The notes beneath the pieces were generated by a model. That model was given only the letters and a program-made list of their open reading frames with translations, did not search any database and had not been told where the DNA came from. Positions 8,151-55,765 of a stretch of DNA of 64,000 bases are shown in pieces (position 1 is the first letter of the stretch; each line of letters begins with the position of its first letter). Both the position numbers and the translations under genes were made by a program. Origin of the DNA: an uncultured Gammaproteobacteria bacterium (lineage in GTDB: Bacteria; Pseudomonadota; Gammaproteobacteria; UBA9214); the NCBI GenBank assembly GCA_963748215.1, contig CAVVHS010000009.1:320001-384000 (forward strand), given 5' to 3'.

Positions 8151-8560
8151 GTGGGAGTTTTGCGGGACTCGGTTATGCATCGTCCTGCATCGTGGTGCAC
8201 AGATCGCAACGGGCGCTACGGTAAGTTGTTGAATAAAAAGGCTGAAAAATCGCCTTTCTGTACTTTTAATCTGATGGTCGTTGGTTCGAGCCGAGGACGA
8301 CGCAGTCGGCCGAGACAACAGCGTCGCATCAGCGACGCTGACCCCGAAGGGGCGAGGGCGCAGCCCGAGTAATCCAACACGACCCACCATTAAATCAATC
8401 ACTTAATTCCGATTTTTCATCCCGGTAAAAATTGATTGCGGGGATTTTGCGGGGATTAACCGCAAATCTTCTCCATTAACATAATCTCGCCCGTAGTAAA
8501 TTCAATTGCTTGCGCGTCAGCAACCGATTCGAACTGTCGTTTCCTGGACCAAAAAATCCG
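8151..8560 (+). repeat. att-like repeat copy 1 (tRNA-Lys 3' half with 82-nt T-loop insert)
   Basis: Arm-like GGGAGTTTTGCGGGA; phased TGCA repeats; IHF-like TAAGTTGTTGAA 8222-8233; tRNA-Lys fragment 8262-8289; insert 8290-8371; ATCCAACACGACCCACCA 8372-8389; IHF consensus AATCAATCACTTA 8393-8405; arm GGGGATTTTGCGGGGAT 8440-8456. Confidence 0.9.
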
Positions 8561-8586
8561 CTGCTCGTAATCGTGTAAGGGTTCAT

Positions 8587-8604
8587 GGGGACAGATCACG
8601 TTTT
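8587..8604 (+). repeat. Solo copy of the RAYT terminal repeat
   Basis: GGGGACAGATCACGTTTT, 17/18 identical to 13308-13325. Confidence 0.75.
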
Positions 8605-8816
8605 TTCCGCTTTCGTTCCAGTCGCGAACTGCATACGGCCCAAGAATGTATCGGGCCCCTTGTTACTTGAGCGGCATGATATGGCCAGAATGACTCGTGC
8701 TGGCGTGCAATGATCATTCACTGGGTCACGACCTGCGAGCAGGGCGATGAGATGTCGATGAACGCTGGCTGTGCGGGTAGTTGTAACACGCAGATACCCT
8801 GGAGGGCGGAGAGGAC

Positions 8817-9218
8817 ATGATGATGTCAATATGTTTCATGCCAGTTTCTTGCAGAACGGCCATGGTGTTGTTCGCATTGCTTGTGTTTGTGACGGGTTAT
8901 GCGTCGGCAGCTGACAAGACACTGAAGATTGACCCGCGGCATGTGGAAGGGGTGCAGGACATGCGTTCTGAAGTCAGGTCCTTGCTGGAAGATCTGGGTT
9001 TCGAATGGCAGCCCATAGCTGATCCCACCACAGGGCAGCCAGTGCAGGTGGCCGAACAACACGGTCAGTACAGAATGTTGTCCAGTGCTGCAGACAATGC
9101 CTCTGTACAGATCGATGTGCACATTCGGATATCCGACAAGGTGACAGGCCTGCATTTCCAGGAACTGGGCGCAGACTCGCCCGGTGACGCTGCAATGGAC
9201 TATTTCCGCAAGATCTAG
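8817..9218 (+). CDS. Exported hypothetical protein, probably cut short by a premature TAG
   Basis: Signal-peptide-like N-terminus; the frame continues after TAG 9216-9218 as ERLILEFGA. Confidence 0.5.
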   Translation: MMMSICFMPVSCRTAMVLFALLVFVTGYASAADKTLKIDPRHVEGVQDMRSEVRSLLEDLGFEWQPIADPTTGQPVQVAEQHGQYRMLSSAADNASVQIDVHIRISDKVTGLHFQELGADSPGDAAMDYFRKI

Positions 9219-9254
9219 GAACGGCTCATACTGGAATTCGGCGCAACTACGGCA

Positions 9255-9585
9255 ATGAATCTCAACCTTGACGCTGGTATCCTGTACGTGGACGAGAACT
9301 TCGATGTGGCCCCGGATTATGACTACCGGGCACTCGGCTGGATGTTCAGTTTCGACCGCTTCCTGGCGCCCGACCGCGTGCAGTTCTACCACCGGGATAA
9401 CGGCCTGCTGGACGTCAGCGACAGTGACAACCTCACCATCAATTCCTGGACTGGCTTCCGCTTCCCGCTCTACAGGGGCATCGTTGCCAGCACCGAGGCC
9501 GAAAATTGAGTACGACGGCGGGGCACCGGATAATGTCGACAAGACCGACACAACCTACCGGATCAAGCTGGGTTACCAGTGGTAA
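9255..9585 (+). pseudogene. C-terminal fragment of a DUF481-like outer-membrane beta-barrel, frameshifted near 9503
   Basis: Alternating beta-strand pattern ending TDTTYRIKLGYQW; N-terminal half missing; extra A in GAAAATT. Confidence 0.6.
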
Positions 9586-9610
9586 CCGCTGATACAACGG
9601 GGCAAGGGGC

Positions 9611-12600
9611 ATGAAGACAGTCAGCTGCGCGCTATGGTTTATATTGATCCTTGCCCCGTTCCTGCCGGTAACCCCGGCCTGGCCGGCTGATACAACATCC
9701 GCCATTGTTACCGCCGACAAGCTGAATGCCAGGCTCAAGGAAGTCGAGGCGGCAACGTCCCTGGATGAGGCGAGCAGGGACACTCTGACTGGATTACTCA
9801 ACAATGCACTGGGCAACCTGGAGACGATCCGTGCCAACAAGGCCACCACGGAGACCTATATCCAGGCTGTGAAAACTGCACGGCAACAGGCCAGTGAGAT
9901 CCGTGCGCGGCTGGACAAGGACATCCAGGCCGATCGAGAGGTGACGGTCACTGCCACGGAAGCCTCTCCTTTCGAGGAGATTGAGCAGGAACTGTTGCAG
10001 GAAAAGGCCAATCTTGCGGCCGTGCAGGCCAAGCTTTCTGACCTTGAGTCGCAGCTGGAAGCGTCTAAAGCCCGGCCGTCAATTGCACAGCAACAGCTGC
10101 TTGCTGCGGAGCGGGAAATAGAAGAGATTGAATCAACACGCAAGTCGCCGGTGGCCGAGGATGAACTGCCCTGGGCAACGGAGGCACGTCAGTGGGCGCA
10201 GACCACCCGGGTCGCTGCACTGCGCAGCAAGAATGTCATGCTTGACCAGGAGCTGCTGAGCATGCCGATGCGGATCGCGTTGCTCGAGGCGCAGCGCGAC
10301 CGGAGCCGCTACACGGTTGAGCGGGTTGCCGTCAGGGTCAAACGGCTGGCTGCATTGGCAAGTCGCCAGTTGGGAACGGAGGCGGAGCAGGCAGGGGCCG
10401 CAGCCAGGCAGGCAGTCCTGGATGCCGCCGGAAAACATCCGCTGGTTCAGGATCTGGCTGAACAGAACGCTGCCCTGTCCGATGAAATCAGTACCCTGGC
10501 GACGGAACTCAAGCAACACGGTTCCAGTAACGAGACACTCACGGAGGAGTCGGAACGTATCGAGGAAAACTTCCGCACTGCCAGGGAAAAGCTCGAGGTG
10601 GCAGGGTTGACCGACGTGCTGGGCCAGGTACTGCGGCAGCAACAGCGGGCATTACCGGACCAGCGCATGCTCGAAAAGAGAATCAGGGAACTCGAACAGG
10701 ATAATGCCCGGTCCACACTGCGCCAGATCCAGTACGCTGCCGAATACAAGGGCCTGCGCAGCATCAAGGACTATGTCAGGGAGCGTACTGCCGGACTCGA
10801 GGCGGCCGAGGCTGAACAGGCGGGTGCGGATATGACGGAACTCGCCAGCGCCCGGCGCGTGTTGCTCGAAAACGCGATCAGCCTCGGCAAGTCCACTTCG
10901 AGGACACTGACGGAGCTTGAAACGGGTAACCGCCGCCTGCTCGAGACGACGGCGGATTTCGACAACCTGCTTGCAGAAAAACTGCTCTGGATCCGCAGTA
11001 ACCCGCGGCCGGACCTGGCGACCCTGCAGGCCATTCCCGTGCAGGTTGTCGGGCTGGTGTCCCCGGCAAGCTGGCTTGGCGTCTACAGAACACTCGCTGA
11101 CCGTGTGGTGCGCTCGCCAGTGTTCGTGCTGTTGCTTGGCCTGGTCGGGATCCTGCTCTTCAGGGTGCGCCGGTTACTGGCGTTGCTCAGGGAGACGGGC
11201 AATACGATCGGCAAACCGTCGCGGGATAAATTCTCGTTCACGTTCAAGGCACTCGGCCTGACCCTGTTGCTGGCAGTGCCCTTGCCATTACTGCTGGCTG
11301 TAACAGGCTGGGAACTCGGATCGGTAGCGGAGGCGACGCAATTTTCCAGGGCGGTTTCTGAGGCACTGTTTCAGGTTGCACCCACATTCCTGTACCTGCA
11401 GTTTTTCAGAATGTTGTGTGTCCATGGTGGTGTTGCCGAACGGCATTTTCGCTGGCCTGAATCGATGACTAAACAACTGCGGCGTGGATTCAGATGGTTG
11501 ATGGCAGTTCTTCTGCCGGCCATTTTTATTCTCGTGCTGCTCTTAAATGATAAAGAGCAGCAAGTTTTTCATGCCGGGCTGGAGCGCCTCGTCATGGCCG
11601 TGGCGCTGGTTGCGTTGGCGGTATTTTTCTACCGCTTGACCGGGTTGCTGGTCGAACACTCAATCGGACCCGTGATGCGCCTGCGCTACCTGTGGGTGAC
11701 GCTGACCGTGGGCACCCCCCTGGTGCTGGCTGGACTGGCGCTCGATGGGTTTCTGTATACGGCCGGCACGCTGGGGCGCAGCCTGGTAGAAACCCTGTGG
11801 TTTGTCTTCGGTCTGGTTGTGCTGCACCAGGTGGTGGTGCGCTGGCTGTTGCTGGCACAGCGGCGGCTGGCTCTGCAGGCCAGACACAAGCGCATGCGTG
11901 CCGCGCAGGATGAGAAAGCGCCGGTCGACTCCGGGATGGAGGGTATGCCGGCCATGGCAGATGAACCGGAAATCGACCTGGTCGTGATGAGCGAGGAAAG
12001 CCGCAAGCTGCTCAATATGCTGCTGGTGATTATCGGTGTTGTCGGTTTCTGGCAGATCTGGTCCGAAGTCCTGCCGGCATTCAGGGTGCTTGACGAGATT
12101 GTGCTCTGGCACCACACGGTGGTGGTCGCCGGTGAGGAGACCTTTGCCCCGGTGTCGCTGGCAGATTTCGGGTTGGCCCTCCTGATTGCCATCGTGACCT
12201 ACGTCGCGATGAAACGCCTGCCGGCAGTGCTGGAAATCGTGCTGTTGCAGCGCGTCAACATGACTTCGGGTGCGCGCTACACCGTCACCACGCTCTACAC
12301 TTATTTAATCGTGGGCATTGGCCTGCTGGCCTTTTTCAATGTCATTGGTGCCGACTGGTCGAAGCTGCAGTGGCTGTTCGCGGCCCTGGGCGTGGGCATC
12401 GGTTTCGGCCTGCAGGAAATCGTGGCCAATTTCATCAGCGGCCTGATTATCCTGTTCGAACGCCCCATCAGGATCGGGGATGTGGTCACCGTCGGTGATA
12501 CCAACGGCGTGGTCACCCGTATCCAGATCCGTGCGACCACGATACGCACCTGGGACCGGCAGGAACTGCTGGTGCCCAACAAGGAATTCATTACCGGGCG

Positions 12601-12982
12601 ACTGCTCAACTGGTCGCTGTCGGACCAGACGACCCGCATCAAGGTTGCTGTGGGTGTGGCATATGGCAGTGATGTGTCACGGGCCATGGCGTTGATGTAC
12701 GAGGCCGCGCTGGAAAATGAACACGTGCTTGCCGAGCCTGCACCGTCAATCATATTCGTGGCCTTCGGCGACAACTCGCTCAACCTGGTATTGCGCTGCT
12801 TCGTCGGTACGCAGGATATCCGCATGACCGCGCTCACGCAGCTGCACGAGGCGATCAACAGGAAGTTCAACGACGCCGGAATCTGTATCGCGTTTCCACA
12901 GCGCGATGTGCACCTGGATGCCTCGCAGCCGCTGGAGGTGCGTATCCGCCATGATGATGCTGCGGGAGAGGCCGCTTCCTGA
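9611..12982 (+). CDS. Large mechanosensitive channel, MscK/KefA-like (MscS family)
   Basis: 1123 aa; signal peptide, periplasmic coiled coil, many TMs, ALGVGIGFGLQEIVANFISGLIILFERPIRIGD, PFPQRD-like end. Confidence 0.92.
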   Translation: MKTVSCALWFILILAPFLPVTPAWPADTTSAIVTADKLNARLKEVEAATSLDEASRDTLTGLLNNALGNLETIRANKATTETYIQAVKTARQQASEIRARLDKDIQADREVTVTATEASPFEEIEQELLQEKANLAAVQAKLSDLESQLEASKARPSIAQQQLLAAEREIEEIESTRKSPVAEDELPWATEARQWAQTTRVAALRSKNVMLDQELLSMPMRIALLEAQRDRSRYTVERVAVRVKRLAALASRQLGTEAEQAGAAARQAVLDAAGKHPLVQDLAEQNAALSDEISTLATELKQHGSSNETLTEESERIEENFRTAREKLEVAGLTDVLGQVLRQQQRALPDQRMLEKRIRELEQDNARSTLRQIQYAAEYKGLRSIKDYVRERTAGLEAAEAEQAGADMTELASARRVLLENAISLGKSTSRTLTELETGNRRLLETTADFDNLLAEKLLWIRSNPRPDLATLQAIPVQVVGLVSPASWLGVYRTLADRVVRSPVFVLLLGLVGILLFRVRRLLALLRETGNTIGKPSRDKFSFTFKALGLTLLLAVPLPLLLAVTGWELGSVAEATQFSRAVSEALFQVAPTFLYLQFFRMLCVHGGVAERHFRWPESMTKQLRRGFRWLMAVLLPAIFILVLLLNDKEQQVFHAGLERLVMAVALVALAVFFYRLTGLLVEHSIGPVMRLRYLWVTLTVGTPLVLAGLALDGFLYTAGTLGRSLVETLWFVFGLVVLHQVVVRWLLLAQRRLALQARHKRMRAAQDEKAPVDSGMEGMPAMADEPEIDLVVMSEESRKLLNMLLVIIGVVGFWQIWSEVLPAFRVLDEIVLWHHTVVVAGEETFAPVSLADFGLALLIAIVTYVAMKRLPAVLEIVLLQRVNMTSGARYTVTTLYTYLIVGIGLLAFFNVIGADWSKLQWLFAALGVGIGFGLQEIVANFISGLIILFERPIRIGDVVTVGDTNGVVTRIQIRATTIRTWDRQELLVPNKEFITGRLLNWSLSDQTTRIKVAVGVAYGSDVSRAMALMYEAALENEHVLAEPAPSIIFVAFGDNSLNLVLRCFVGTQDIRMTALTQLHEAINRKFNDAGICIAFPQRDVHLDASQPLEVRIRHDDAAGEAAS

Positions 12983-13051
12983 CGCATCGTTCGTCGCAGT
13001 GAAAAATGAATTCATCCCGCCTTCGCGACACGGTCAGGATGTCCGGTACTC

Positions 13052-13184
13052 AGGGAACCTCTGATCTGTCGTCATTCCGGCCGGAGCGCAGCGGAGTACC
13101 GGAAACCGGTTCATATAATTAATCCGGTTACTGGATCCCGGCCTTCGCCGGGATGACGGGATAATAATGATTCAGAGCTTCTCT
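13052..13184. repeat. MITE/REP-like nested palindrome
   Basis: Outer AGGGAACCTCTGA / TCAGAGCTTCTCT (11/13) enclosing GTCATTCCGG (13071)...CTGGATCCCGGCCTTCGCCGGGATGAC (ends 13157). Confidence 0.6.
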
Positions 13185-13307
13185 CGCTAAATCGGGGCTA
13201 CGCGGATGCCGGTTAGCCGATCTTCCCGATGCTGGCCTGCGCGATCTGATATTGGCGTTAAATGGCCAGATAAGCTCCCGCGAACAGCCTAAAGACTAGG
13301 AAGAATA

Positions 13308-14133
13308 GGGGACAGACCACGTTTTTCAATCTGATTTGGCGGGTCTTCCCGGGTTTCTACGTGTAACACGTCGTTGCAGCATGTGGGAGATCTCAGACTT
13401 AAAGCGTTCATTACCCAGAGCATAGTTACCATGCGAAGCAGTCCGGATCTCGGCAAGCAGATCGGGGTCTATAGCTGTGTGAAACAGGCCACGGTAATTG
13501 GCAAGACGCGTTTCTTCACTCCCTCCGAGTGCCAGGTATTCTGCGTGTGGCGTCAGGCCGTCGTGCTGTGCGCCTTGACCGTTAATCCTGTAACTTGACC
13601 ACTGATATTCTGCCGGGTGCTCTACCATGACTGCGCGAACCGGGTTCAATTCGATATATCGGTAACAGGCAAGTACATAGTGACTTTCCTGAACCAGACA
13701 GGAGCGAAAACGGCCTTCCCAAAGCGTTCCGCTGCGCTGGTAGCGACGGTTACTGTATTGGACGTAACGCTGACCAAGCTGTTTCATGAGCAGAGCGGCG
13801 CTATCACGCGCTGCTGGGGTAAGGAGCAGGTGTACATGATTCGTCATCAGGCACCAGGCATGTACACTGCAACGATATCTAGCGCCCTGCTCAGCCAGGG
13901 TATCAAGGTAATACTGGTAATCGCAGTTGTCGTAGAAGCAGGGGCTGCGATTATTGCCGCGCTGGATGATATGCCAGGGAATGCCAGGAATGACCAGGCG
14001 GGCACGGCGTGGCATAAGAATAACCTTGTTCAATTTAGAGTAAGAGTTGAATGGTGAATGCATGAATACGGCGGTTATGTAGTGAATGTGCGTGAAGGTG
14101 CGTCAGTAATTGACGAAAACGTGGTCTGTCCCC
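13308..14133 (-). mobile_element. RAYT/Y1 transposase element with perfect 18-bp inverted ends
   Basis: GGGGACAGACCACGTTTT (13308-13325) and AAAACGTGGTCTGTCCCC (14116-14133) bracket the transposase; the left repeat abuts its stop codon. Confidence 0.8.
13326..14015 (-). CDS. REP-associated tyrosine transposase (Y1_Tnp, HUH)
   Basis: MPRRAR...HIIQRGNNR, WCLMTNHVHLL (HUH), GTLWEGRF, YIELNPVRA, YQWSSY; start at MPRR preferred over 14063. Confidence 0.9.
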   Translation of the reverse strand: MPRRARLVIPGIPWHIIQRGNNRSPCFYDNCDYQYYLDTLAEQGARYRCSVHAWCLMTNHVHLLLTPAARDSAALLMKQLGQRYVQYSNRRYQRSGTLWEGRFRSCLVQESHYVLACYRYIELNPVRAVMVEHPAEYQWSSYRINGQGAQHDGLTPHAEYLALGGSEETRLANYRGLFHTAIDPDLLAEIRTASHGNYALGNERFKSEISHMLQRRVTRRNPGRPAKSD

Positions 14134-14220
14134 CCCCCTTTTTCTTTTTTCAGAGACCAGTTGTTAGAGATCTAAACAGGTGCTATTGTTAGACCAGTTA
14201 ATGGCCCATTTGGAACTGGT

Positions 14221-14490
14221 ATGAGCACGAAATTTTCAGAGGATGTCATTCCTCTTACCGACCTGAAAACCAACCCCGGTCGTGTGGTGAAACATGTCTC
14301 GGATGCGCATCGGCCGGTACTTGTTACCAGCCGTGGTCGCGGTGTTGCCGTGGTCCAGTCCGTGGCCGATTATGAACAAACACAGGAGGACTGCGCCTTC
14401 ATGCGCGCGGTTGTGGAGGGCCTGGCGGATCTGGAGGCAGGACGGGAAGTTTCACTTGTGGAAGCCAGGAAGCGGCTGGGACTGAAATAG
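14221..14490 (+). CDS. Phd/YefM-family antitoxin
   Basis: 89 aa, IPLTDLK.NPGRVV...RPVLVTSRGRGVAVV. Confidence 0.88.
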   Translation: MSTKFSEDVIPLTDLKTNPGRVVKHVSDAHRPVLVTSRGRGVAVVQSVADYEQTQEDCAFMRAVVEGLADLEAGREVSLVEARKRLGLK

Positions 14491-14494
14491 ATCA

Positions 14495-14812
14495 ATGCCG
14501 CGGATTGTTATCAGCTTCTCGGAGTCGGCATTGCGCGATCTCGAGGAGATAAAGGCATGGTATGTGGAGCAGGGCGTGTCCGATATCGGTGAACGGTTGG
14601 TAGCTGAGGTCTTTCAACGGGTCGAGACGCTTGCCGAACATACCGACATAGGCCGGACAGTCCCCGAATTTGAGCAATCATTCCTCCGGGAGTTGATTCA
14701 TCCGCCATTTCGACTTGTCTACCGTCACGATACGAAGCGTGTGAGGGTTGTGCGTATCTGGCGCAGTGAACGGCTGCTGCGTCTCGATCCGGATTCGAAG
14801 ACTTCAGGGTAA
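14495..14812 (+). CDS. RelE/ParE-family toxin
   Basis: 105 aa, FSESALRDLEEI, GRTVPEF...LRELIHPPFRLVY; follows the antitoxin. Confidence 0.88.
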   Translation: MPRIVISFSESALRDLEEIKAWYVEQGVSDIGERLVAEVFQRVETLAEHTDIGRTVPEFEQSFLRELIHPPFRLVYRHDTKRVRVVRIWRSERLLRLDPDSKTSG

Positions 14813-14977
14813 ATCGTCGGGTCTTTATGACGCACTGGCACAGAACGCGTGTGTGTGAAGAATTGTTGCTCGTGCGGCTATGAGCAGTTTGAATTGTATT
14901 GGCTCTCTAGTAACCCGGGGTGGTTCATACAGTGCATTGTTGCTCTGGTCTTGGGCCAGATATAGGCAAACGACCCT

Positions 14978-15393
14978 GTGGGGATTTTGCGGGGATCAGT
15001 TTTGCATTGTTATGCATCGTGGTGCACAGTGTGCAACGGGCGCCACGGTAAGCTGTTGAGATTAAAAGCGTAAAAATGCTTTTTCTGTCCTTTTAATTCG
15101 ATGGTCGTTGGTTCGAGCCGTGGACGACGCAGTCGGCCGAGACAACAGCGTCTCATAGGCGACGCTGACCCCGAAGGGGCGAGGGCGCAGCCCGAGTAAT
15201 CCAACACGACCCACCATTAAAACAGTCACTTCCCTCTGATTTTTCATCCCGGTAAAAATGGATTGTGGGGATTTTGCGGGGATTAACTGCAATTTTTTCT
15301 CGTTGGGTCAATTTCGCCTGTAACCAATTCAATTGGTTGCGTATCAGTAGTCGACTCGAACAGCTATTTTCTGGACCAAAAATCCGATGCTCG
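14978..15393 (+). repeat. att-like repeat copy 2
   Basis: Same layout as copy 1: tRNA-Lys fragment 15090-15116, insert 15117-15198, ATCCAACACGACCCACCA 15199-15216, arm repeats on both sides. Confidence 0.9.
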
Positions 15394-16332: not shown

Positions 16333-16344
16333 ATTCGTTAGTCC

Positions 16345-16554: not shown

Positions 16555-16600
16555 GGGTACTTGTTAAAATCCAGGGTAGGCCGGTTTTAAATAAAGTAAA

Positions 16601-42594: not shown

Positions 42595-42692
42595 TCATGT
42601 CCTTCCCGAAAATACGTACTGCCTGATATTCTTGACCTTTTTCAGAGACGCTATCAATCTGGTGTCCGCTGTCATTGTTAGTATCCAGAATC

Positions 42693-43720: not shown

Positions 43721-44248
43721 TAGGGTGTGATACGAGTTTTCAGGAAGGACATCTTTCCTGACCTGGGGCGGGGGCAAAGCGGACCGCGAAAAAGAAGCCG
43801 GCCCCGAAAACCCTCATATCCGTGCGACGGACAGGCCGAAAAAGCACAAAAATGGGGGGTTCCCACCGGTAACGGCGAAATCCGGGCCAATTTTGTGGCG
43901 GCCCTGGGGCTGGGTTGGCCTTCAACTGCATCCAGGGAAGGGTTAGGCGTGACTGGGCCTGATATGCGCTGCGTGTTTATGAGGACATTAAAAGATTTTG
44001 CTGTGAGAATTCACACTTTTCCGGAAGCTCGGCTACCATAGGGTAGCAGCGCAATGGGGTATTCGAAACACACGATTGCACGTAGGCTTTAACCCTGTGG
44101 CATGGTTGCTGTCATACACCTGAGTAGAACTTTTTGTCCGTTGATCGATCTACTTAATTCGAACGTCCGGGTCAGTGGCTGATGCTTGAGGCGGGCACTC
44201 CGTCTCGGTGTGGTTCGTATAAACAGCTAACACAATGAGGATAATTTA

Positions 44249-45101: not shown

Positions 45102-45142
45102 CATTCATTCAATTACCGTTACAGGAATAGAGAGAATATATT

Positions 45143-45625
45143 ATGCCAACTTTCGTATATATGACTCGTTGTGATGGTTGTGGCCAGTGCGTTGATATCT
45201 GTCCATCTGACATCATGCACATCGATAAAACACTTCGTCGTGCTTACAACATTGAACCTAACATGTGCTGGGAATGTTATTCCTGCGTAAAAGCCTGCCC
45301 TCACCACGCGATTGATGTGCGTGGTTATGCAGATTTCGCTCCACTGGGTCACTCGGTACGCGTGCTCCGTGATGAGGAAAAAGGCACGATTGCGTGGCGC
45401 ATCAAGTTCCGCAACGGCAAAAAAGACATGGATCTTCTGGCGCCTATCACAACCAAACCCTGGGGCACCGCAATTCCCCAGCTGTCCGAAGAAGCAGCAC
45501 CAAGTAACGAAATGCGTGACAGTGAGCTGTTGTTTAACGAGCCCAAGTATATCCGCCTGGATGAAGGTGGCTTGCACACACTTGAGTCAAATGGCCTGAA
45601 ACTGAAAGAAGGGGTGTACTACTAA
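45143..45625 (+). CDS. aprB: Adenylylsulfate reductase beta subunit
   Basis: MPTFVYMTRCDGCGQCVDICPSDIM...CWECYSCVKACP..AIDVRGYADF. Confidence 0.97.
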   Translation: MPTFVYMTRCDGCGQCVDICPSDIMHIDKTLRRAYNIEPNMCWECYSCVKACPHHAIDVRGYADFAPLGHSVRVLRDEEKGTIAWRIKFRNGKKDMDLLAPITTKPWGTAIPQLSEEAAPSNEMRDSELLFNEPKYIRLDEGGLHTLESNGLKLKEGVYY

Positions 45626-47491: not shown

Positions 47492-47540
47492 GGTAATAGC
47501 CGAGTAAATATCAAGATTAATTTCTACTTGTCTTTGAAAT

Positions 47541-47574
47541 AAAGACCAGCATATTGTTTGTTGGTCTTTTTTTT
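47541..47574 (+). terminator. Rho-independent terminator after aprA
   Basis: AAAGACCAGCA-loop-TGTTGGTCTTT followed by a T run. Confidence 0.75.
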
Positions 47575-47637
47575 CCATAGTTTAGTAGTATGCGGCCTTT
47601 GTTCGATCGATAGTCCTGCGAAACTTATATGTTTTAA

Positions 47638-48003
47638 GTGAACAATAGAATGATGAATATTATTGAAAAAACAGATGAAGAGATATTGGCGCTCGCTAAC
47701 CCAATGTGGGCTGATCTTGTTAAATACTCGAATGAACAAAACTACGGTGCTTTCACCCGACATTTCGCAGCAGCTATGCTGATGGGTGCAAATGAAATCG
47801 AGATGGGCAAACAGTTTGCAAGAAGTGAATTGACAAAGAACCTGTCTGAAAATTACGAATATCTTGGCATAATACGCCGTGGTGAACATGTAACGGTTTT
47901 ATATAAACAAAGACATACCAAGAAAGAGGGCGAGTGGCTGGGCAGGCTGGTGCTGGGTTATGAAAAGGACAAGGTAAAAATATTTGGTGCTACGCTGTTC
48001 TAG
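47638..48003 (+). CDS. Hypothetical protein (possibly NTF2/DUF3887-like)
   Basis: 121-aa AT-rich ORF co-oriented with apr; no firm motif. Confidence 0.6.
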   Translation: MNNRMMNIIEKTDEEILALANPMWADLVKYSNEQNYGAFTRHFAAAMLMGANEIEMGKQFARSELTKNLSENYEYLGIIRRGEHVTVLYKQRHTKKEGEWLGRLVLGYEKDKVKIFGATLF

Positions 48004-48035
48004 GGCAGCTTTATCGATAACAGGTTTTTCTGGTT

Positions 48036-48545
48036 ATGTCAGATACAATACAAAACGAAAAATTCGTTGAACTAAGTTATAAAATCATCGATGAAAAAAC
48101 CGGTGACATACTTGTTACTGTTGATTATCCTCTGGGGTATGTTCATGGTGTGAATGATGTTTTGTCTGATCAGGTGACAAAGCAACTGGATGGCAAAAAA
48201 GTCGGTGATATCATCGAAGTGCCTGTTGACACTAAACTGCTATATGGTGAGAGAGACGAATCACTTGTGTTTACTGACCACATCGAAAATGTTCCTGAAG
48301 AGTATCGAGAGATCGGTATGACCATTACCATGGAAAATGAAAAGGGTGAGCCCAGAAATTTTATCGTCACCCGTTTCGATGACAAAACATTAACCGTCGA
48401 TGGAAATAATCCACTGTGTGGTAGAGACGTTGTTTTCAGGTTGGAAGTGTTGAACATACGTGAAGCGACCGATGAAGAAATCGATCTTGGCGGAGCTGTT
48501 GACGCCGACCCAGACTTAAATGATATTTTCAGCCGGGCAAAATGA
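48036..48545 (+). CDS. SlyD-like FKBP-type PPIase
   Basis: FVELSYKI, PLGYVHG, LYGERDE, VDGNNPLCGRDVVFRLEVLNIREATDEEI. Confidence 0.85.
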   Translation: MSDTIQNEKFVELSYKIIDEKTGDILVTVDYPLGYVHGVNDVLSDQVTKQLDGKKVGDIIEVPVDTKLLYGERDESLVFTDHIENVPEEYREIGMTITMENEKGEPRNFIVTRFDDKTLTVDGNNPLCGRDVVFRLEVLNIREATDEEIDLGGAVDADPDLNDIFSRAK

Positions 48546-49720
48546 AATTCTCCAATACTTACATATTTTACCCGGTCAATAAGGCCTTGGAACGTGCAAT
48601 AGCAAATTCTATAGCCGGGCTTGGTGAGGAATCGGCCAAAGTTGCTGCTCCGGATACCAGGGTAACCGCAGCTGATAATTTTCTTTATACACGGGGAAAT
48701 TATGAACAGCATCGTTTCAGTTCCAATATTCTTGACAGTGCGCGTGAGGCACTTGAAGCATCACTGACAGATGAATATCGCGACAAGGAGCCATTAGCCT
48801 GGGCTGAGACTCATAATAGTCTTGGCAATATTCTTGCGGCACAGGGGCAACAGCAGAGAGATGTTGAATTGTATGAAAAGGCCATTCAGTGTTTTAACAA
48901 TGCGCTAGCAGAGTTTAACCAGGAAAAGTCACCCCTCGACTGGGCAGCAACACAAAATAACCTGGGAACCGCAAAGCAAGCTTTGGGCCGGCAACTGGAT
49001 AACTCGAAATTGCTGAAAGAATCCATTGATGCTTATACTAATGCGTTATTGGAATGGTCTCGAAAAAAGACGCCTGAAGAATGGGCATCAGCCATGCATC
49101 AACTTGGTGCTACTTTCCATACTTATGGCAAACTTTTAAAAGGTAACCGTACTTTTCAAAAGTCCGTTGTCGCCTATAAAAATGCAATCGCAGAGTTCGA
49201 TGCTGATAATAATGCTTTCGAGTTGGCCGCTACACACAATAATTGTGGTGCAGTACTGCATAATTTGGCTGAATCAGAAGAAAACCCGGATCGCCTGGAA
49301 GAGGCAATAAGATCATATGAGACGGCATTGACAGTTTGCATGGAGCAGCAACTTCCCATTCATCTCGCAGTACTATGCAAGGTAAACAGGTCTACCGCTC
49401 GAGGCGTGCTGGCTGAGTTAACAAAAGACACTACAATTGCCGACGAAGCGGCTGATGAGTTTGAATTGATTATCGAATGTTTTCCGCATGCGCTTCAACC
49501 ACTCTGTTTAAAGCATTGCGAGGAGCAAATTAATAGGGCAAAGTGCGCTAGCATGCGATTAGCTCTAGCAGATGAATCAGGAAACAAGAAGGCGCTTGAT
49601 TTTGTTATTTACGTCAGTCAAGTGGGAGGGCTGACATACCTGTTTATATTCCACTCGTTTCAACCATTTAGGAGTTATGACTATGAGCGATGCACCAAAA
49701 ACCAGGCCCAAAGTTCCTGA
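48542..49720 (+). CDS. Tetratricopeptide-repeat protein
   Basis: Repeats of P..WA.T.N.LG..L (WAETHNSLG, WAATQNNLG, WASAMHQLG, LAATHNNCG); the last ~55 aa may be read-through. Confidence 0.8.
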   Translation: MKFSNTYIFYPVNKALERAIANSIAGLGEESAKVAAPDTRVTAADNFLYTRGNYEQHRFSSNILDSAREALEASLTDEYRDKEPLAWAETHNSLGNILAAQGQQQRDVELYEKAIQCFNNALAEFNQEKSPLDWAATQNNLGTAKQALGRQLDNSKLLKESIDAYTNALLEWSRKKTPEEWASAMHQLGATFHTYGKLLKGNRTFQKSVVAYKNAIAEFDADNNAFELAATHNNCGAVLHNLAESEENPDRLEEAIRSYETALTVCMEQQLPIHLAVLCKVNRSTARGVLAELTKDTTIADEAADEFELIIECFPHALQPLCLKHCEEQINRAKCASMRLALADESGNKKALDFVIYVSQVGGLTYLFIFHSFQPFRSYDYERCTKNQAQSS

Positions 49721-49844
49721 AGGCAAGTCACGTTTTCTGACAACCACTCAGATGGAGGCTAATGAAAAAGGCTACGTTGGCTATAAAACTACCTGGGAAG
49801 CATTCCAGAAAGAAGTACCATACAAGACCCCCAAGAAGCCTTGA
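49683..49844 (+). CDS. Small protein (53 aa), not in the ORF track
   Basis: AGGAG RBS at 49670-49674; MSDAPKTRPKVPEGKSRFLTTTQMEANEKGYVGYKTTWEAFQKEVPYKTPKKP; followed by hairpin GCCGCGCG...CGCGCGGC. Confidence 0.65.
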   Translation: MSDAPKTRPKVPEGKSRFLTTTQMEANEKGYVGYKTTWEAFQKEVPYKTPKKP

Positions 49845-50174
49845 GATATTCAGCCGCGCGTACCTGCAAGGTCGCGCGGCCACCAAGTCTGATTTTTTGT
49901 TTGTATAAGGGTGTTTTTTTTGCGGGCTTTTTTGAAATCCGAAATATTAACTTTGCATACGGCTAAGTCGCTTGTGCTTGGACTTGGTACTGGCGGGTGA
50001 CAGCACCTTGCAGCCACCTTCTAATTTCGTTGGCTCTTCCCCAAATCGAGTGGGTAGATTACCGTTGTAGGGCCGAATTCATTCGTCCAACAACCTTGGC
50101 ATCATAAGGAATGCGTCTCGTCTGAATTGATGTGTTACCCACTCAATCAGGGGAAGATCCATTTCGTTTATAGC

Positions 50175-50591
50175 TTAAATACGATTAGAAAGCTGGTAAT
50201 CCACATTAATAAAAGCGCCAATATCTGCCAGGAAACGAATCGTTCTGGCGCCGAAACCAACATCGGGTGCTGTTTCGTTTTTATCGACTGACAAAACCAG
50301 GACCACGCCAATTCGGGGTGATAAATTATGGCTTTTTATCACTTCAAGGATCTTTTCCTTGACCGGTTCAATTTGCTTGATAAGTTCGTTCGTCAAATCA
50401 TAAACGTCCACATCATCAGTAATCGTTTCCGTAGATAACTCCCATGAACTGATCACGGGTTTGTCCAATCCGCTGCTTGCACCGGAAGCATCGACTGCGG
50501 TGGGTTCTATGCCAAGCAGGCGAGTGATGTCATCGGGATTGAAATGATAGCCACTTAGTGTGAAGTAGGCCCTTCCTTTATTAGAAGCCAA
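50175..50591 (-). CDS. DUF4279-like protein
   Basis: AYFTLSG..FNPDDITRLLGIEPT, W.LS, FLADIGAFINVD. Confidence 0.75.
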   Translation of the reverse strand: MASNKGRAYFTLSGYHFNPDDITRLLGIEPTAVDASGASSGLDKPVISSWELSTETITDDVDVYDLTNELIKQIEPVKEKILEVIKSHNLSPRIGVVLVLSVDKNETAPDVGFGARTIRFLADIGAFINVDYQLSNRI

Positions 50592-50655
50592 GATATTACC
50601 CTGATCAATTGATTGTAAATATGATGGGTGATTATAGCGTGTGTGTGGCGAATTG

Positions 50656-51713
50656 TTACACAGGCTGCTGCGGGCACCTGGTATAGCTCACGGCAATGAG
50701 ATTTCCAACTGAGTTTGTTGAGATCCGCACGGTGGATAATGGCTTCACCACTGATTTCTGACGGTGTATTGCCGTCGAGTGGATTGTGCACACGATGAGC
50801 GTTGTAATACTGCCGAAAGTTTTCCAATTTCCTCTCCAGGTCGCTGGCGTTCCAGAAGAGTGCCTGGTCAAGATATTCGCGGCGAATGGTCCTGATCAGC
50901 CATTCGACGAAGGAATGCGATAACGGTACGTACGGAACGGGTTTGATCTCTTCGACATTCATGATGCGAAGATTCGCTTGCCATCGGTGATACAGGAATA
51001 AAGGGTCATTGTCAGAACTGAGGTAGTGTGGAATACCTCTGGGTAGAGGACGCCTTGTTGAACATGCGACAAAGGGCAATACCATCGACATCGCCCGTAT
51101 GGACGCCAAAGCCGATGATGCGCCGAGTGAACTGATCCATGATGACGAGTACCCGGTGGCTCTTCGAAAGAATGGATTCACACCGAAACTGATCAATGCT
51201 CCAGAGGCTGTCCTTCGTGTGTTCTGGAAAAGACAGCCATGATGGCCCATTGTCATCGGAGCTTGGCCGGTAATGTGCGGCGAGGACACGCCGCACTACA
51301 TCTTTATCGATGTCGATTACGAACGCGTTGTTGATCTGTTGTGCGATTCGTGGGCATCCGAATCGAGGATTGCGTTGCTTCAGTTCGACGTTAGCCTGGA
51401 TGGGTTCCTGCGATGGGCCCTTGGGACCTGGCTTGCTTTTGCTGCCAGATGAATACAGCCGTTGATAATTTCGCTTCTTGAGAATGTCGTCAAATGCCAA
51501 AAGCGTCGATGGCCGAATAATCACGTCGACCCGCTGAATGCGGCATGGGCTGAGAAACAGCGACCAGAAGCCGAGCAGGAGTCTATCAAGTGCCGAAAGA
51601 TTGGGTGCGCGTCTCCTGGCGCGGTTCATAACCAGGAGCTGCTGCTTCATGAGGAGGCTGTCAGCGACGACAGCCCCCGCCCCGCCGGGCCCCGGCAGTA
51701 ACCTGCTCAGCAT
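50656..51713 (-). pseudogene. Second IS transposase relic (rve family), fragmented, opposite orientation
   Basis: LMKQQLLVMNR.RRRAPNL, NPRFGCPRIAQQI, WSID.FRCES, then SSDNDPLF...FVEWLIRTIRREYLD...YYNAHRVH. Confidence 0.85.
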
Positions 51714-51826
51714 AAAGTGGAGATGAATTCTGGATACGTAATAGCTTGCTACTTACCCTTTACATGATGTTCTTCGCTACAATAGCTCCCTGTTACACCT
51801 TATTCATTTGACAAGCATAGAGAAAT

Positions 51827-53035
51827 TTGAACTCATCGATTACGAGAGCGGTTGACGTCCTCATCATCGGCGCCAGCGCCGCCGGGCTGATGTGTGCAAT
51901 CGAGGCAGGCAAGCGGCAACGCAGTGTGCTGGTCATCGATCACGCCAACAAGGCCGGCAAGAAGATCCTGATGTCCGGTGGCGGCCGCTGTAACTTTACC
52001 AACTACCAGGTCGGTGCGCATAACTTCCTGTCCCACAATCCGCATTTTTGTAAATCCGCCTTGAGTCGTTTCACTCAATGGGATTTTATCTCCATGGTCG
52101 AACGCCACGGCATTCCTTACCACGAGCGCGAGCATGGCCAGTTGTTTTGTAATGACAGCGCCAAGGACATTCTGAACATGTTACTCGAGGAATGCCAACG
52201 TGCAGAGGTGCGCGTACAACTCGACACCTCGGTTGGAGAAATTAAAAAAAACAGTGATGGCCGCTTCCAGGTTAAGATCGAAAATCGCCTTCAACCCGCT
52301 GTTACCGATTGCCAATCCCTGGTGGTGGCCAGCGGCGGCCTCTCGATCCCCAAGATGTGCGCCAGTCCGATTGGTTACCGTATTGCCGAACAGTTTGGAA
52401 TAAACATCCGGGCCACCCGTGCCGGTCTTGTACCCTTTACCCTGCATGAGGCAGATAAACAACGCTTTGCAGAGTTGGCTGGGATCGCGGTGGAGAGTGT
52501 CGTCTCGAATAACCGCGCCCGGTTTCGCGAGAACATCCTGTTCACCCATCGGGGCTTGAGTGGTCCGGCGATCCTGCAAATTTCTTCCTACTGGCAGCCC
52601 GGCGAAAGTGTCACGATTAATTTATTACCCGACAAACACGTCGCCGAACTGCTCACCGTTGCACGCCAGACTGAGGCCAGTAAAAAACTCAAGACCATCC
52701 TGACGCAATGGCTACCAAAGCGATTGGTGGCGGCCCTGATCGATGATGCACTGCTGGAGAACCCGTTACAGCATCTGAATCAGGAGCAGATTCAGTTTGT
52801 CAGTGACGCCATCCATCAATGGGCGCTGCGACCCAATGGGACCGAAGGCTATCGTACGGCAGAAGTCACGCTCGGGGGTGTGGATTGTGATGCACTCTCG
52901 TCAAAAACCATGGAATCCCAAAACGTGGCCGGATTATATTTTATTGGTGAGGTGCTGGACGTGACGGGCTGGCTAGGCGGTTATAACTTTCAGTGGGCCT
53001 GGTCGTCCGGCTGGTGTGCGGGACAATATGCCTGA
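51827..53035 (+). CDS. HI0933/YhiN-family NAD(P)/FAD-dependent oxidoreductase
   Basis: GKKILMSGGGRCNFTN, ILFTHRGLSGPAILQIS, AEVTLGGV, GEVLDVTGWLGGYNFQWAWSSG. Confidence 0.92.
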   Translation: MNSSITRAVDVLIIGASAAGLMCAIEAGKRQRSVLVIDHANKAGKKILMSGGGRCNFTNYQVGAHNFLSHNPHFCKSALSRFTQWDFISMVERHGIPYHEREHGQLFCNDSAKDILNMLLEECQRAEVRVQLDTSVGEIKKNSDGRFQVKIENRLQPAVTDCQSLVVASGGLSIPKMCASPIGYRIAEQFGINIRATRAGLVPFTLHEADKQRFAELAGIAVESVVSNNRARFRENILFTHRGLSGPAILQISSYWQPGESVTINLLPDKHVAELLTVARQTEASKKLKTILTQWLPKRLVAALIDDALLENPLQHLNQEQIQFVSDAIHQWALRPNGTEGYRTAEVTLGGVDCDALSSKTMESQNVAGLYFIGEVLDVTGWLGGYNFQWAWSSGWCAGQYA

Positions 53036-53619
53036 ATGCATAGGCCGGCAACCAGGCGGTTACCGGCTTATCATGGCATGTTTATCTGGCAGTCTTTTTC
53101 AGTAAAGGGAAAGACATCGGTAAATCCCATGATGTCGGCGAACGGCAACACCAGAAACACCAGTGCCGCGGCACCAGGCAGGCTGCTACCGTCGGCAGGC
53201 AGCTCCTCGAATTTTTGATTCATGCTGCGCACATCCTCCGGGGTCATGCGTGCAGCGCGCGCGACGGCCATGGCCGGATACACACTGCGTTCGATCAAGG
53301 CGGATTTCACCTCTTGCCGGTCGAGCAGTTTACCAACCTGTCACAGGCAAGTTGATCCTGCTGCTTCGGGCAATAGCTGCCTCGCCGCTACGCTCCATGC
53401 AATGACCAGGAATGTCAAACGGTCGAAATCGGACAGAGATAACTCCCGATTCGCCATTATTAAATAGCATAATAGTGTTTGTATCCTTTCCCCTTGCTGT
53501 ACCGAATCCAGCCTGTAACAGGATTAATCTGCCCGCCTGAAGTTACCTGACCTGCGTTAGAATACCCAACCACCACCCGAACATGCAGACTCACCACAGA
53601 GCAAACCGGATTATCCTAC

Positions 53620-55245
53620 ATGCTACGTTTGACCGAAATCAGGCTTCCCCTCGATCACACCGAAGACTCGCTCAAGCTCGCGATCCTCGAGCGGCTGGGG
53701 ATTCCGGCGGAGGACTTGCTCGGATATTCCATCGCCCGCAGCGGACATGATGCGCGCAAGCCGAAGGCGATCGTGGCCGTGTACACATTGGATGTTGAAA
53801 TCAAGGGTGAAGCGGCAATGCTTCAGCGATTCGCGCACGATCCGCATTGCATACCCACGCCGGATACCGAATATCACTTCGTCGCACAGGCACCCACCGA
53901 TTTTGAATCACGCCCGGTGGTGATCGGCTTGGGGCCAGCGGGTCTGTTTGCCGCGCTTATCCTGGCACAGTCGGGCTTCAATCCCATCGTGCTGGAGCGC
54001 GGCAAGGCGGTACGTGAACGCACCAGGGACACCTTTGCACTGTGGCGCCAGGGTGTTCTCAATCCGGAATCCAACGCGCAGTTTGGCGAGGGTGGTGCGG
54101 GCACGTTCTCAGATGGCAAGTTGTATAGCCAGATCAAAGATCCGAAACATCATGGCCGCAAGGTGCTCACGGAATTCGTTAAAGCCGGCGCACCGCCGGA
54201 AATTCTTTATGTGAGTAAGCCACACATCGGCACCTTCCGGCTGGTGGGCATGGTGGAAACCATGCGCAACACTATCGAGGCGCTCGGCGGTGAGATTCGT
54301 TTCGAATCGCGGGTGGACGATTTCGAAATTGATAATGGACAGCTGCGTGGCGTAGTGCTCGCCAGTGGCGAACGCATCGCGACGGAGCATGTGGTACTGG
54401 CCATAGGCCACAGTGCACGCGACACCTTTCAGAAACTGTTCGATCGCGGTGTGTATATCGAGGCCAAGCCGTTTTCAATTGGCTTCCGCATCGAACACCC
54501 GCAATCGCTTATCGACACATGCCGCTTTGGCAGGAATGCCGGCAACCCGCTGCTCGGCGCTGCCGATTACAAGTTGGTGCATCACTGCAGCAATGGCCGC
54601 TCGGTATACAGCTTCTGCATGTGCCCTGGCGGCACGGTGGTCGCTGCCGCCTCTGAACCGGGTCGCGTTGTCACCAATGGCATGAGCCAGTATTCACGCA
54701 ACGAGCGCAATGCCAACAGCGGCATTGTGGTCGGCATCACGCCTGAAGATTATCCGGATGGCCCCTTGGCCGGCATCGCCTTCCAACGGCAGTGGGAAGA
54801 ACGCGCTTTTGAGTTGGGCGGTGAAGATTATTCAGCGCCAGGTCAGTTGGTCGGTGATTTCCTGGCCGGACGCCCTTCGACTCAATTGGGCTCGGTCATA
54901 CCGTCGTACAAACCGGGTGTACATCTATGTGACCTGAGCAAGGCGCTCCCCGATTACGCGGTTACCGCAATCCGCGAGGCACTGCCTGCCTTCGGCAAAA
55001 AAATTAAAGGCTTTGCCATGAACGACGCCGTGCTCACCGCCGTCGAGACGCGCACCTCGTCACCGATCCGTATCAAGCGCAATGAAGATTACCAGAGCCT
55101 GAATACGCGCGGACTGTATCCGACGGGTGAAGGCGCGGGCTATGCGGGCGGCATTCTGTCCTCAGCGGTGGATGGCATCAAGGTCGCCGAGGCGGTGGCA
55201 TTAAGTATGGTGCGAAGCCTTAATCCACACGCCCACGATTGCTGA
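53620..55245 (+). CDS. Uncharacterised FAD-dependent dehydrogenase (COG2509-type)
   Basis: VVIGLGPAGLFAAL, QFGEGGAGTFSDGKL, YSFCMCPGG, ETRTSSPIRI, GEGAGYAGGILSSAVDG. Confidence 0.9.
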   Translation: MLRLTEIRLPLDHTEDSLKLAILERLGIPAEDLLGYSIARSGHDARKPKAIVAVYTLDVEIKGEAAMLQRFAHDPHCIPTPDTEYHFVAQAPTDFESRPVVIGLGPAGLFAALILAQSGFNPIVLERGKAVRERTRDTFALWRQGVLNPESNAQFGEGGAGTFSDGKLYSQIKDPKHHGRKVLTEFVKAGAPPEILYVSKPHIGTFRLVGMVETMRNTIEALGGEIRFESRVDDFEIDNGQLRGVVLASGERIATEHVVLAIGHSARDTFQKLFDRGVYIEAKPFSIGFRIEHPQSLIDTCRFGRNAGNPLLGAADYKLVHHCSNGRSVYSFCMCPGGTVVAAASEPGRVVTNGMSQYSRNERNANSGIVVGITPEDYPDGPLAGIAFQRQWEERAFELGGEDYSAPGQLVGDFLAGRPSTQLGSVIPSYKPGVHLCDLSKALPDYAVTAIREALPAFGKKIKGFAMNDAVLTAVETRTSSPIRIKRNEDYQSLNTRGLYPTGEGAGYAGGILSSAVDGIKVAEAVALSMVRSLNPHAHDC

Positions 55246-55354
55246 AGGCGGCACTATTGATATCCTGTGTATGGCGAATTACTGCTTATGCAGCCACAGG
55301 CAGCTGATGAAGGCCTGGGCAAGGGATTTCCGGCAGAATCGACTGTTCACAGTT

Positions 55355-55765
55355 CGGGACTTTTACGGGACACAGTCCTGCACAACTATGCACCGTTATG
55401 CAATCGAGGCAACGGACGCCCCAAATTACCCGTATAAAAACAATCATATACATGCCAACTCTGTCACTCATAATGCTGGGGTCGGTGGTTCGAGCCGAGG
55501 AAGACGCAGTCGGCCGGGACAACCGCGTCGCATTAACGGACGCTGACCCCGAAGGGGCGAGGGCACAGCCCGAGTAATCCAACACGACCTACCATTAAAA
55601 CAACTAGTTACCTCTTGTATTTCTTCCCACAAAAATTGATTGTGGGGATTTTGCAGGGATTAACCGCATACTTTCTCGTTGGCTTGATTTCACCTGTAAT
55701 AAATTCAATTGGTTGCGAATCAGTAACCGACTCGAACTGTCGTTTCCTGGACAAAACATTCGATG
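55355..55765 (+). repeat. att-like repeat copy 5 (tRNA-Met-type left half, Lys-type right half)
   Basis: CGGGACTTTTACGGGAC arm; TCACTCATAATGCTGGGGTCGGTGGTTCGA 55464-55493 (CAT anticodon); 83-nt insert 55494-55576; ATCCAACACGACCTACCA 55577-55594; right arm as in copies 1 and 2. Confidence 0.88.

Follow-up and report, generated by a model that had tools for sequence, protein, structure and literature searches.

Nine att-like repeat units behind a tRNA-Lys(UUU) gene of an uncultured gammaproteobacterium: a probable tandem array of integrase-less islets with RtT-like cores

The DNA considered here is a stretch of 64,000 nucleotides (the window) from an uncultured gammaproteobacterium of the GTDB lineage UBA9214 (assembly GCA_963748215.1, contig CAVVHS010000009.1). 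It corresponds to positions 320001-384000 of contig C9 in a genome of 3.52 Mb and nine contigs (G000, the host genome; C9 and similar designations are its contigs). Five copies of a non-coding unit of 250-420 bp are found in the window, and these are probably the internal junctions of a tandem array in which at least eight islets are stacked behind one tRNA-Lys(UUU) gene. The units are named U1 to U9 from the tRNA-proximal to the distal end, the window holding U3 to U7, and the modules between them are numbered 1 to 8. The best reading is that of a decayed tandem island array, resembling cis-mobilizable elements (CIMEs) or tycheposon islands rather than an integron, because the integrase is absent from the contig and the only near-full-length copy of its gene in the genome is split over several frames. 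An origin of the array by serial site-specific integration is well supported. Related genomes (congeners, G0xx) are species-level representatives of the genus, many of them fragmented. For one protein of the host genome, the best match with a name is in a Sedimenticola MAG (98%), no more than a hint at affiliation given how conserved this protein is.

All five copies in the window lie on the plus strand (Table 1; U5 spans 40568-40817 apart from its extended left arm). Five co-oriented copies had been claimed in an earlier, sequence-only reading of the window, and the claim was borne out by reading of the sites and by a repeat search, in which families D5 and D6 were represented by five of five copies each and family D4 by four copies of 76-87% identity over 300 nt. 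The arm motif GGGRNTTTTRCGGGR, counted with at most one mismatch in the window and in 100 shuffles of it, occurs eight times against an expectation of 0.18, and none of the shuffles reached eight. All eight matches are on the plus strand and inside units; the left-arm motif of U6, the fourth unit in the window, has an extra T and escapes the pattern. The phased TGCA repeats at 15003, 15013, 15023 and 15032 are as described earlier, with spacings of 10, 10 and 9 nt. The boxes likened to binding sites of integration host factor (IHF) have no support beyond chance: the exact consensus is not meaningfully enriched, with four matches in the window (1.41 expected; four reached in 3 of 100 shuffles), and just one of the four is located inside a unit. 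A genome-wide blastn search with one unit as query returned 12 matches, ten on C9 and two short, weak ones on C6. The ten merge into nine units covering C9:310628-408789 (~98 kb), all on the plus strand, and this search revealed no full unit outside that interval. As to whether the copies are clustered or dispersed, they are clustered in one orientation, and scattered copies of random orientation were not seen.

The ends of the series are informative with respect to its origin. ARAGORN detected no tRNA in the window and an intact tRNA-Lys(UUU) gene 9.4 kb upstream of it, at C9:310571-310646. U1 begins inside the 3' end of this gene and consists of a right arm only. In U2-U4 and U6-U8, a left arm, a tRNA-derived core and a right arm follow each other, while U5 and the last unit, U9, located 24.6 kb downstream of the window, are made up of left arm and core only. 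The part of tRNA-Lys from the anticodon loop to CCA is present in eight of the nine units. A full left arm is kept at seven of the eight tRNA-distal junctions (U2-U9), with the right arm also kept at six, and both arms persist at six of the seven internal junctions, the exception being U5. This attL/hybrid attP/attR layout is the pattern of serial site-specific integration at one tRNA gene. Of the tRNA and the integrase that had been expected at the array ends, the intact tRNA-Lys(UUU) is located at the left end, but no integrase is found on the contig. The view of the units as attP-like junctions of a tRNA-anchored array is nevertheless sustained by the end structure, by breakpoints in congeners and by the association of the arm motif with an integrase family.

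In the scenario proposed, an islet would arrive as a circle carrying an attP site composed of a left arm, a copy of the 3' part of the tRNA and a right arm. Recombination between circle and tRNA gene, catalyzed by a tyrosine integrase, would take place within the core that stems from the tRNA, probably at its T-loop, and each newcomer would rebuild the tRNA and push the older islets outward. Since the newest islet would insert at the tRNA, the internal junctions would be hybrid attP sites, combining the left arm of the tRNA-nearer islet with the right arm of its older neighbor. In related elements, the integrase gene directly adjoins the right arm and is oriented toward the tRNA; in the Lys array, such genes would later have been lost from every islet. 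We infer the order of these events, the position of the crossover and the loss of the integrase as opposed to its primary absence.

A comparison of strains for gain or loss of blocks exactly at the cores had been suggested; at the species level, both are seen in congeners. In G051, the flank, the tRNA-Lys gene and a right arm lead straight into module 2 (81-88% identity), which extends as far as a U3-like unit. Since module 1 is absent there between the cores, it is an insertion bounded by the U1 and U2 cores. A 3.3-kb islet of G023 comprises a right arm, the gene of a 433-amino acid (aa) protein, a left arm and a core. In G045, a left arm of the U4/U5 type is joined to the right arm of U7 and the start of module 7 (90.7% identity over 2762 bp), the switch from left to right arm falling at the T-loop, and in G008 a unit immediately precedes a gene that in the host genome is located within module 7. 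The right 6.8 kb of module 4 are 92.3% identical in G018, where the homology stops at window position 40509, that is, at the first base of the extended left arm of U5; in the same congener, the Lys site is nearly empty, a homologue of C9:414626-415470 being located 2.7 kb behind tRNA-Lys, compared with 104 kb in the host genome. Parts of module 6 are 89-97% identical in G047, G019, G051, G008 and G045. As the conserved flank shows an identity of 71-84% in the same species, module identities of 89-97% point to recent transfer between species.

The core of the units had been described as a tRNA 3' half. It does extend from the anticodon loop to the CCA end of tRNA-Lys(UUU), but its T-loop is interrupted by an insert of 82 nt. 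Two units are chimeric. In U5, the T-stem halves are mismatched, the 5' half (GTTGG) being of the host-genome type and the 3' half (CCTTC) of the congener type. In U7, the left arm and the anticodon region are of the tRNA-Met type (CTCATAA) and are 79-85% identical to units behind tRNA-Met on C8. The sequences of U5 and U7 place exchanges between the two T-stem halves. The unit of G051 that is orthologous to U3 (L053, G051:C10 14126-14282, compared with window 8149-8389) is devoid of the insert, and its T-stem reads GAAGG/CCTTC, matching the tRNA of G051, versus GTTGG/CCAAC in U3. In U6, the proximal ~45 nt of the right arm are deleted and the motif is found at 42503.

The distal portion of the right arm was identified by nhmmer as an inverted, degenerate tRNA-Lys extending from the D-stem to the T-loop; the z-scores of this alignment against shuffles are 4.0-9.1 for seven congener copies and -0.2 to 3.5 for five copies of the host genome. 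A minus-strand frame of the right arm (..YEHRIFGP..NPRK..) is conserved and appeared coding-like at first. It is carried by no open reading frame (ORF) of more than 151 aa in 37 genomes of the genus, none of three candidates scored turned out to be a longer protein relative, and a blastp comparison with the family integrase described below gave nothing below an E-value of 0.5. The interpretation of the right arm as a 3' remnant of an integrase was rejected in favor of the inverted tRNA-Lys.

The insert resembles RtT (Rfam RF00391). Together with its tRNA flanks, the U3 insert matches the full RtT model (1-130) at 8257-8389 with 35.8 bits (E 2.3e-5). The similarity emerged from an E-value scan of one unit; at Rfam gathering thresholds, nothing is found in the window, the gathering score of RtT being 45 bits. 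Six Lys units match the full model at 28.7-35.8 bits, all under the gathering score, among them U4 (32.6 bits, C9:335071-335216) and U6 (28.7 bits). Scanning of the host genome at E<=0.01 yielded 18 RtT matches, seven of which exceed the gathering score (45.9-61.2 bits). The copies that were read adjoin a tRNA gene on its downstream side (Glu twice, Ser-TGA, Ser-GGA, Gln-UUG and Val), and those behind tRNA genes terminate in the 3' strand of that very tRNA, CCA included. The tRNA-Pro copy is located ~6 kb behind tRNA-Pro, after a partial copy of that tRNA; the remaining matches lie, by their coordinates, just downstream of listed tRNA genes. Conserved single-stranded motifs are evident in an alignment of 15 copies, and the second hairpin exhibits compensatory changes, five of the standard base pairs being represented at one position. 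Among 100 other genomes sampled from the class, an RtT match at E<=0.001 is found in 15, three of them over the cut-off, and among 14 control genomes a match was obtained in E. coli only. Many congener units are without the RtT insert, some have it, and one contains a stump.

The Lys copies are like RtT in that insert and tRNA strands match the full model, in ending with the cognate 3' strand and CCA, and in lying downstream of a tRNA. They differ from it by retaining the real anticodon and variable region of tRNA-Lys where RtT has its 5' hairpin, by scores below the gathering score, and by being kilobases apart in att-like units instead of forming a short tandem repeat. The function of RtT, known from the repeats behind tyrT in E. 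coli, is unsettled (bioRxiv 10.1101/2024.07.17.603846); a search of the RtT/tyrT literature retrieved little beyond this preprint. As a separate observation, the host genome is unusually rich in RtT, some of it in tandem, such as the 169-nt repeats behind tRNA-Glu; RtT loci include C6:381933-382238, C3:218181-218314, C6:476888-477032, C5:12665-12988, C5:191319-191474, C8:224874-225282 and C2:152802-152944. At C8:225160-225300 (minus strand), a full-length 5' part of tRNA-Gln is combined with an RtT-like T-loop insert and a broken acceptor end; the intact tRNA-Gln(UUG) gene (c225037-225111) follows downstream, and then another RtT copy.

From the RtT affinity of the core, the units might be regarded as a self-spreading repeat, or as a family of RtT-like small RNA genes, situated between native, non-mobile blocks. 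The multiplicity of RtT-like elements in the genome, directly behind tRNA genes at the loci read, would agree with such a repeat, as would the clean presence or absence of the insert in an orthologous unit. It is, nevertheless, a highly improbable explanation. Clustering of the units and the structure of the array ends largely refute it, the full units being confined in one orientation to 98 kb behind tRNA-Lys, with half-units at the ends. In addition, whole blocks are missing or replaced at units in congeners, and many congener units possess the arms but no RtT insert.

As to the enzyme, a genome-wide search with the profile PF00589 gave five matches, none of them on C9, and the serine recombinase profile PF00239 gave none in the genome. 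The domain rve was matched ten times in the genome, once inside the array with 17.7 bits. The statement that the window contains no recombinase holds for site-specific integrases, but a RAYT gene, an rve_3 ORF resembling an insertion sequence (IS) and a truncated transposase-like ORF are present. Insight into the integrase family has been gained from congeners. G024 encodes a Phage_integrase protein of 375 aa (PF00589, 1.1e-16) that reads toward tRNA-Met and has its stop codon 45 nt behind that gene; its last codons contain the motif GGGACTTTTACGGGAC. Full-length relatives with 63% identity are found in G017 and G049, each at a locus with tRNA-Arg(ACG), and in G017 the integrase gene ends ~25 nt from the 3' end of the tRNA, the motif again being inside the gene. 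In G014, the motif and then an integrase 3' end, truncated where the contig stops, come after an intact tRNA-Lys, and in G003 the motif and an integrase 3' end lie behind the 3' part of tRNA-Lys at a contig start. In G048, a single junction comprises left arm, core and right arm together with an integrase gene interrupted by TAG, and in many genomes no more than the final 60-130 codons of the family integrase are left. The arm motif is, thus, tied to a tyrosine integrase family. With the NCBIfam integron-integrase model, the family integrase scores 16 bits, the cut-off being 265.

In the host genome, the only near-full-length family integrase (C5:1503-2650) adjoins tRNA-Arg and is split over three frames; among the matches there is no intact one, the others being short remnants. 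The left-arm family of the Lys array is also present behind tRNA-Met (two units, C8) and tRNA-Pro (one unit, C6), where the cores derive from tRNA-Met or tRNA-Pro. The Met array (C8:207183-211949, minus strand) lies behind the tRNA-Met gene at c221035-221111 and is accompanied, at the place expected, by a C-terminal integrase remnant at C8:211573-211737. The Pro unit (C6:884165-884510, minus strand) lies behind tRNA-Pro(GGG) at c890561-890637, with a C-terminal remnant at C6:890398-890505.

Several of these observations weigh against a decayed array. A tblastn search of the Lys array with the G024 integrase gave no match at E<=1, that is, no remnant inside the array. Among the loci inspected in five congeners, the PF00589 matches are away from the Lys units, although integrase 3' ends are seen at the Lys site of G014 and G003. 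That all eight islets should have lost the integrase while seven of the eight distal junctions retain well-preserved arms is unlike plain decay and fits cassettes that were integrase-less from the start; cores that track the host tRNA argue in the same direction. Finally, the pattern of gain and loss could arise from homologous recombination alone.

Taken from this side, the array could be a working integron-like system, in which cassettes lacking an integrase by design, each bounded by a complete site, would be excised, shuffled and taken up at tRNA-Lys with the help of a family integrase that another element or another cell provides in trans. Such a system would account for the arms at the internal junctions, save that U5 is without a right arm and that of U6 is partly deleted, for modules containing neither an integrase nor a detectable remnant, and for modules that reappear in other species, delimited by units, with 89-97% identity. 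Orthologous cores carrying each host's own T-stem would, moreover, imply exchange with the resident tRNA after species divergence, and because the Lys, Met and Pro left arms belong to one motif family, one integrase family could serve all of them. We consider a working system unlikely, since the host genome is without an intact family integrase, having only the C5 copy in three frames and short remnants, and since the defining parts of an integron are all absent. Furthermore, the 82-nt insert between the T-stem halves in all internal units should disturb the usual core geometry, and many congener units are without it.

A related proposition, which appears doubtful, sees the units as live, portable sites: an integrase family with one arm motif at Lys, Met, Pro and Arg tRNAs would shuffle integrase-less multi-gene modules in trans, both within and between species, and the RtT fold would be part of site function. 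The RtT-like fold might then bring the T-stem halves together in single-stranded DNA or RNA, or might switch the site off. If this were true, RtT repeats, unexplained since their discovery in E. coli, would gain a role at att sites. The lack of an intact family integrase, the insert in every internal unit and the lack of an integrase-bearing neighbor argue against a live system. In the decayed array, movement by an integrase in trans, as suggested by the sequence-only reading, is possible in principle and is not supported, the only near-full-length family copy being the frame-split one. The array is probably frozen for site-specific movement in the host genome; by homologous recombination through the units, modules can still be gained, lost or swapped. 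Exchange subsequent to the serial integration could have used the cores in either a site-specific or a homologous manner.

Along the same line, the units might be relics between which modules are exchanged only by RecA-dependent homologous recombination, including uptake of congener DNA, the repeats of 250-420 bp serving as substrate. An appreciable, though less than even, likelihood is assigned to this explanation. The units are 70-92% identical to each other, with the core and the RtT-like insert as the best-conserved stretch, and identity between the U1 and U2 right arms amounts to 96.9% over 320 bp and continues past the point where units normally stop, which is what a recent recombination or duplication event would produce; the absence of an intact integrase is equally in line with it. 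It leaves unexplained, however, the origin of the array and the presence of an integrase-family motif in the arms. The switch points of G045, U5 and U7 are all confined to the short core of tRNA origin, the longer arms containing no such point, which is weak evidence against it because the core is also the most identical part.

The decayed tandem array most closely invites comparison with known islands. Serial integration at a tRNA gene leaves partial tRNAs and degenerate integrases in the tycheposon islands of Prochlorococcus (bioRxiv 10.1101/2020.12.28.424599), and the ssrA islands of Dehalococcoides are described as tandem island arrays at the tmRNA gene (PMC3146451). The Lys array shares with tycheposon and ssrA arrays the intact tRNA at one end, the partial tRNA repeats between adaptive cargo blocks, the outward displacement of older elements by newer ones, the degenerate or absent integrases and the variable content among relatives. 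It differs from them in junctions that keep full arms rather than tRNA scrap, in the absence of an integrase or a detectable remnant from all eight modules, in the RtT-like T-loop insert of each tRNA remnant and in the inverted pseudo-tRNA of the right arm.

CIMEs are att-flanked elements without an integrase of their own, which occur in tandem with integrase-bearing elements and depend on the integrase of this neighbor. The Lys modules are likewise att-flanked, no integrase or recombinase of this kind was found in them, and conjugation genes were not seen among the ORFs scanned. In contrast to CIMEs, no integrative and conjugative element (ICE), conjugation module or integrase-bearing partner adjoins the Lys array, and eight modules in a row are unusual. 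Both CIMEs and site-specific accretion with ICEs are named in the ICEberg 2.0 article (PMC6323972) and in PMC5704250.

With integrons, the Lys array has in common the one-directional arrangement, the structured recombination sites between modules and modules without a recombinase of their own. Unlike an integron, it has no intI, attI or Pc promoter, its junctions are double-armed attP-like sites with a tRNA core and not attC hairpins, and its modules are multi-gene segments of 1.4-25 kb with genes on both strands; the label integron-like was dropped accordingly, a folded attC-type site also being absent. The array does not constitute a new element class, serial tRNA integration and integrase-less att-flanked modules both being known. 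New is the combination of an integrase-less tandem island array with complete att sites and RtT-like cores. If the decayed-array reading is true, ~98 kb of a sulfur-oxidizer-like gammaproteobacterium would be a swappable stack of modules on one tRNA gene, illustrating that cargo exchange may continue after integrase loss. Its cargo spans defense (Wadjet, AbiE-like), osmotic and Na+/pH homeostasis, metal efflux, sulfur/FAD enzymes and a secreted adhesin. The array would also represent a natural test of an integrase acting in trans on orphan att sites and of the role of RtT-type tRNA mimics inside them.

Table 1. Units, modules and selected genes of the tRNA-Lys array (window positions unless a contig is given)
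Feature	Position	Strand	Description
Module 1	C9:310.9-317.8 kb		CBS protein, CrtC, MacB-type ABC transporter, RAYT, PIN toxin
Module 2	from C9:318202 to window 8148		433-aa hypothetical protein, AbiEii, Wadjet JetABCD
AbiEii toxin-like gene	3-683	-	Pfam AbiEii 3.5e-31
Wadjet JetA/B/C/D	1387-8078	+	DUF3375 3.9e-151, DUF4194 1.8e-45, AAA_29/SbcC_Walker_B, DUF3322 + JetD_C
U3	8149-8569	+	whole unit
U3 left arm	8149-8261	+	motif GGGAGTTTTGCGGGA at 8153; phased TGCA repeats
U3 tRNA-Lys positions ~32-58	8262-8289	+	anticodon loop to 5' side of T-loop
U3 RtT-like T-loop insert	8290-8371	+	82 nt
U3 tRNA 3' end	8372-8389	+	rest of T-loop, 3' T-stem, acceptor strand, CCA
U3 right arm	8390-8569	+	second motif at 8440; distal part inverted pseudo-tRNA-Lys
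Module 3	8570-14975		MscK-type mechanosensitive channel 9611-12982 (+), RAYT, Phd/ParE 14221-14812 (+)
RAYT/Y1 transposase	13326-14063	-	NCBIfam REP_Tyr_transpos 1.9e-19, 70 bits vs cut-off 80
U4	14976-15393	+	RtT-like insert 15117-15198; 3' end 15199-15216; right-arm motif 15267
Module 4	15394-40509		~25 kb; Zn-ribbon, Usp, baeRF-family, two Na+/H+ exchangers, P-type cation ATPase, Mrp-type antiporter subunits
U5	40510-40817	+	extended left arm from 40510, motif 40572; attR-like, right arm absent
U5 RtT-like insert	40709-40790	+	
U5 tRNA 3' end	40791-40808	+	
Module 5	40818-42256	+	one FKBP-type peptidyl-prolyl isomerase gene 40995-42137; FKBP_C 7.4e-31, FKBP_N 8.8e-18
U6	42257-42594	+	RtT-like insert 42398-42479; 3' end 42480-42497
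Module 6	42595-55354		FAD enzymes, TPR protein, IS remnants
Truncated transposase-like ORF (module 6)	42675-43535		
Conserved FAD-binding protein (module 6)	45625-47058		
rve_3 IS-like ORF (module 6)	50555-51289	-	
HI0933-like and FAD-dependent proteins (module 6)	51827-55245		
U7	55355-55770	+	RtT-like insert 55494-55576; tRNA-Lys 3' end 55577-55594; Lys-type right arm, motif 55644
Module 7	55771 to C9:400529	+ in window	GAF-HlyD, repeat adhesin
GAF-HlyD membrane-fusion protein	56036-57520	+	Pfam
1573-aa repeat protein	58181-62902	+	279/282-nt tandem repeats, 64-87% identity, families D1-D3
Module 8			metal ATPase, CusB-like efflux

The cargo was annotated by a Pfam scan of 40 ORFs from the array and its flanks, a subset of all ORFs. 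By Pfam, the eight modules are functionally unrelated to one another, in agreement with the earlier description of unrelated blocks between the copies. The 1573-aa repeat protein downstream of the GAF-HlyD gene is probably a type I secreted adhesin. Module 4 also encodes a baeRF family 10 domain protein (19857-21065, minus strand).

The 433-aa gene of module 2 (C9:318316-319617, minus strand) lies beside the right arm and the AbiEii gene. Its product has no match in Pfam and NCBIfam; 1329 relatives were counted at E<=1e-5 among 8000 candidates scored, and its hits in a protein atlas are unnamed. The idea that it is a hidden recombinase was set aside, and the gene is treated as cargo belonging to a widespread conserved hypothetical family found beside AbiEii and Wadjet. 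The 433-aa gene and AbiEii may constitute an AbiE-like pair in which one member is atypical; gene calling in one congener merges them into a 701-aa fusion.

RAYT was considered as the mobilizing enzyme and is regarded as an IS-like passenger, its copies lying ~1 kb from U2 and U4 and not at the units. An 843-bp segment containing the gene occurs at 13292-14134 and, 99.9% identical, at C9:315959-316801 in module 1, the next features after either copy being a toxin gene or a toxin-antitoxin pair and, beyond it, a unit. Six matches to PF01797 are distributed across the genome, four of them outside the array. Dispersed repeats of ~95-130 nt, resembling miniature inverted-repeat transposable elements (MITEs) or REPINs, fall into two or more families with more than 20 copies genome-wide at 85-95% identity. 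Copies are located at 50031-50163 of the window (C9:370031-370163) and at C9:308813-308928, 399403-399518 and 417352-417497.

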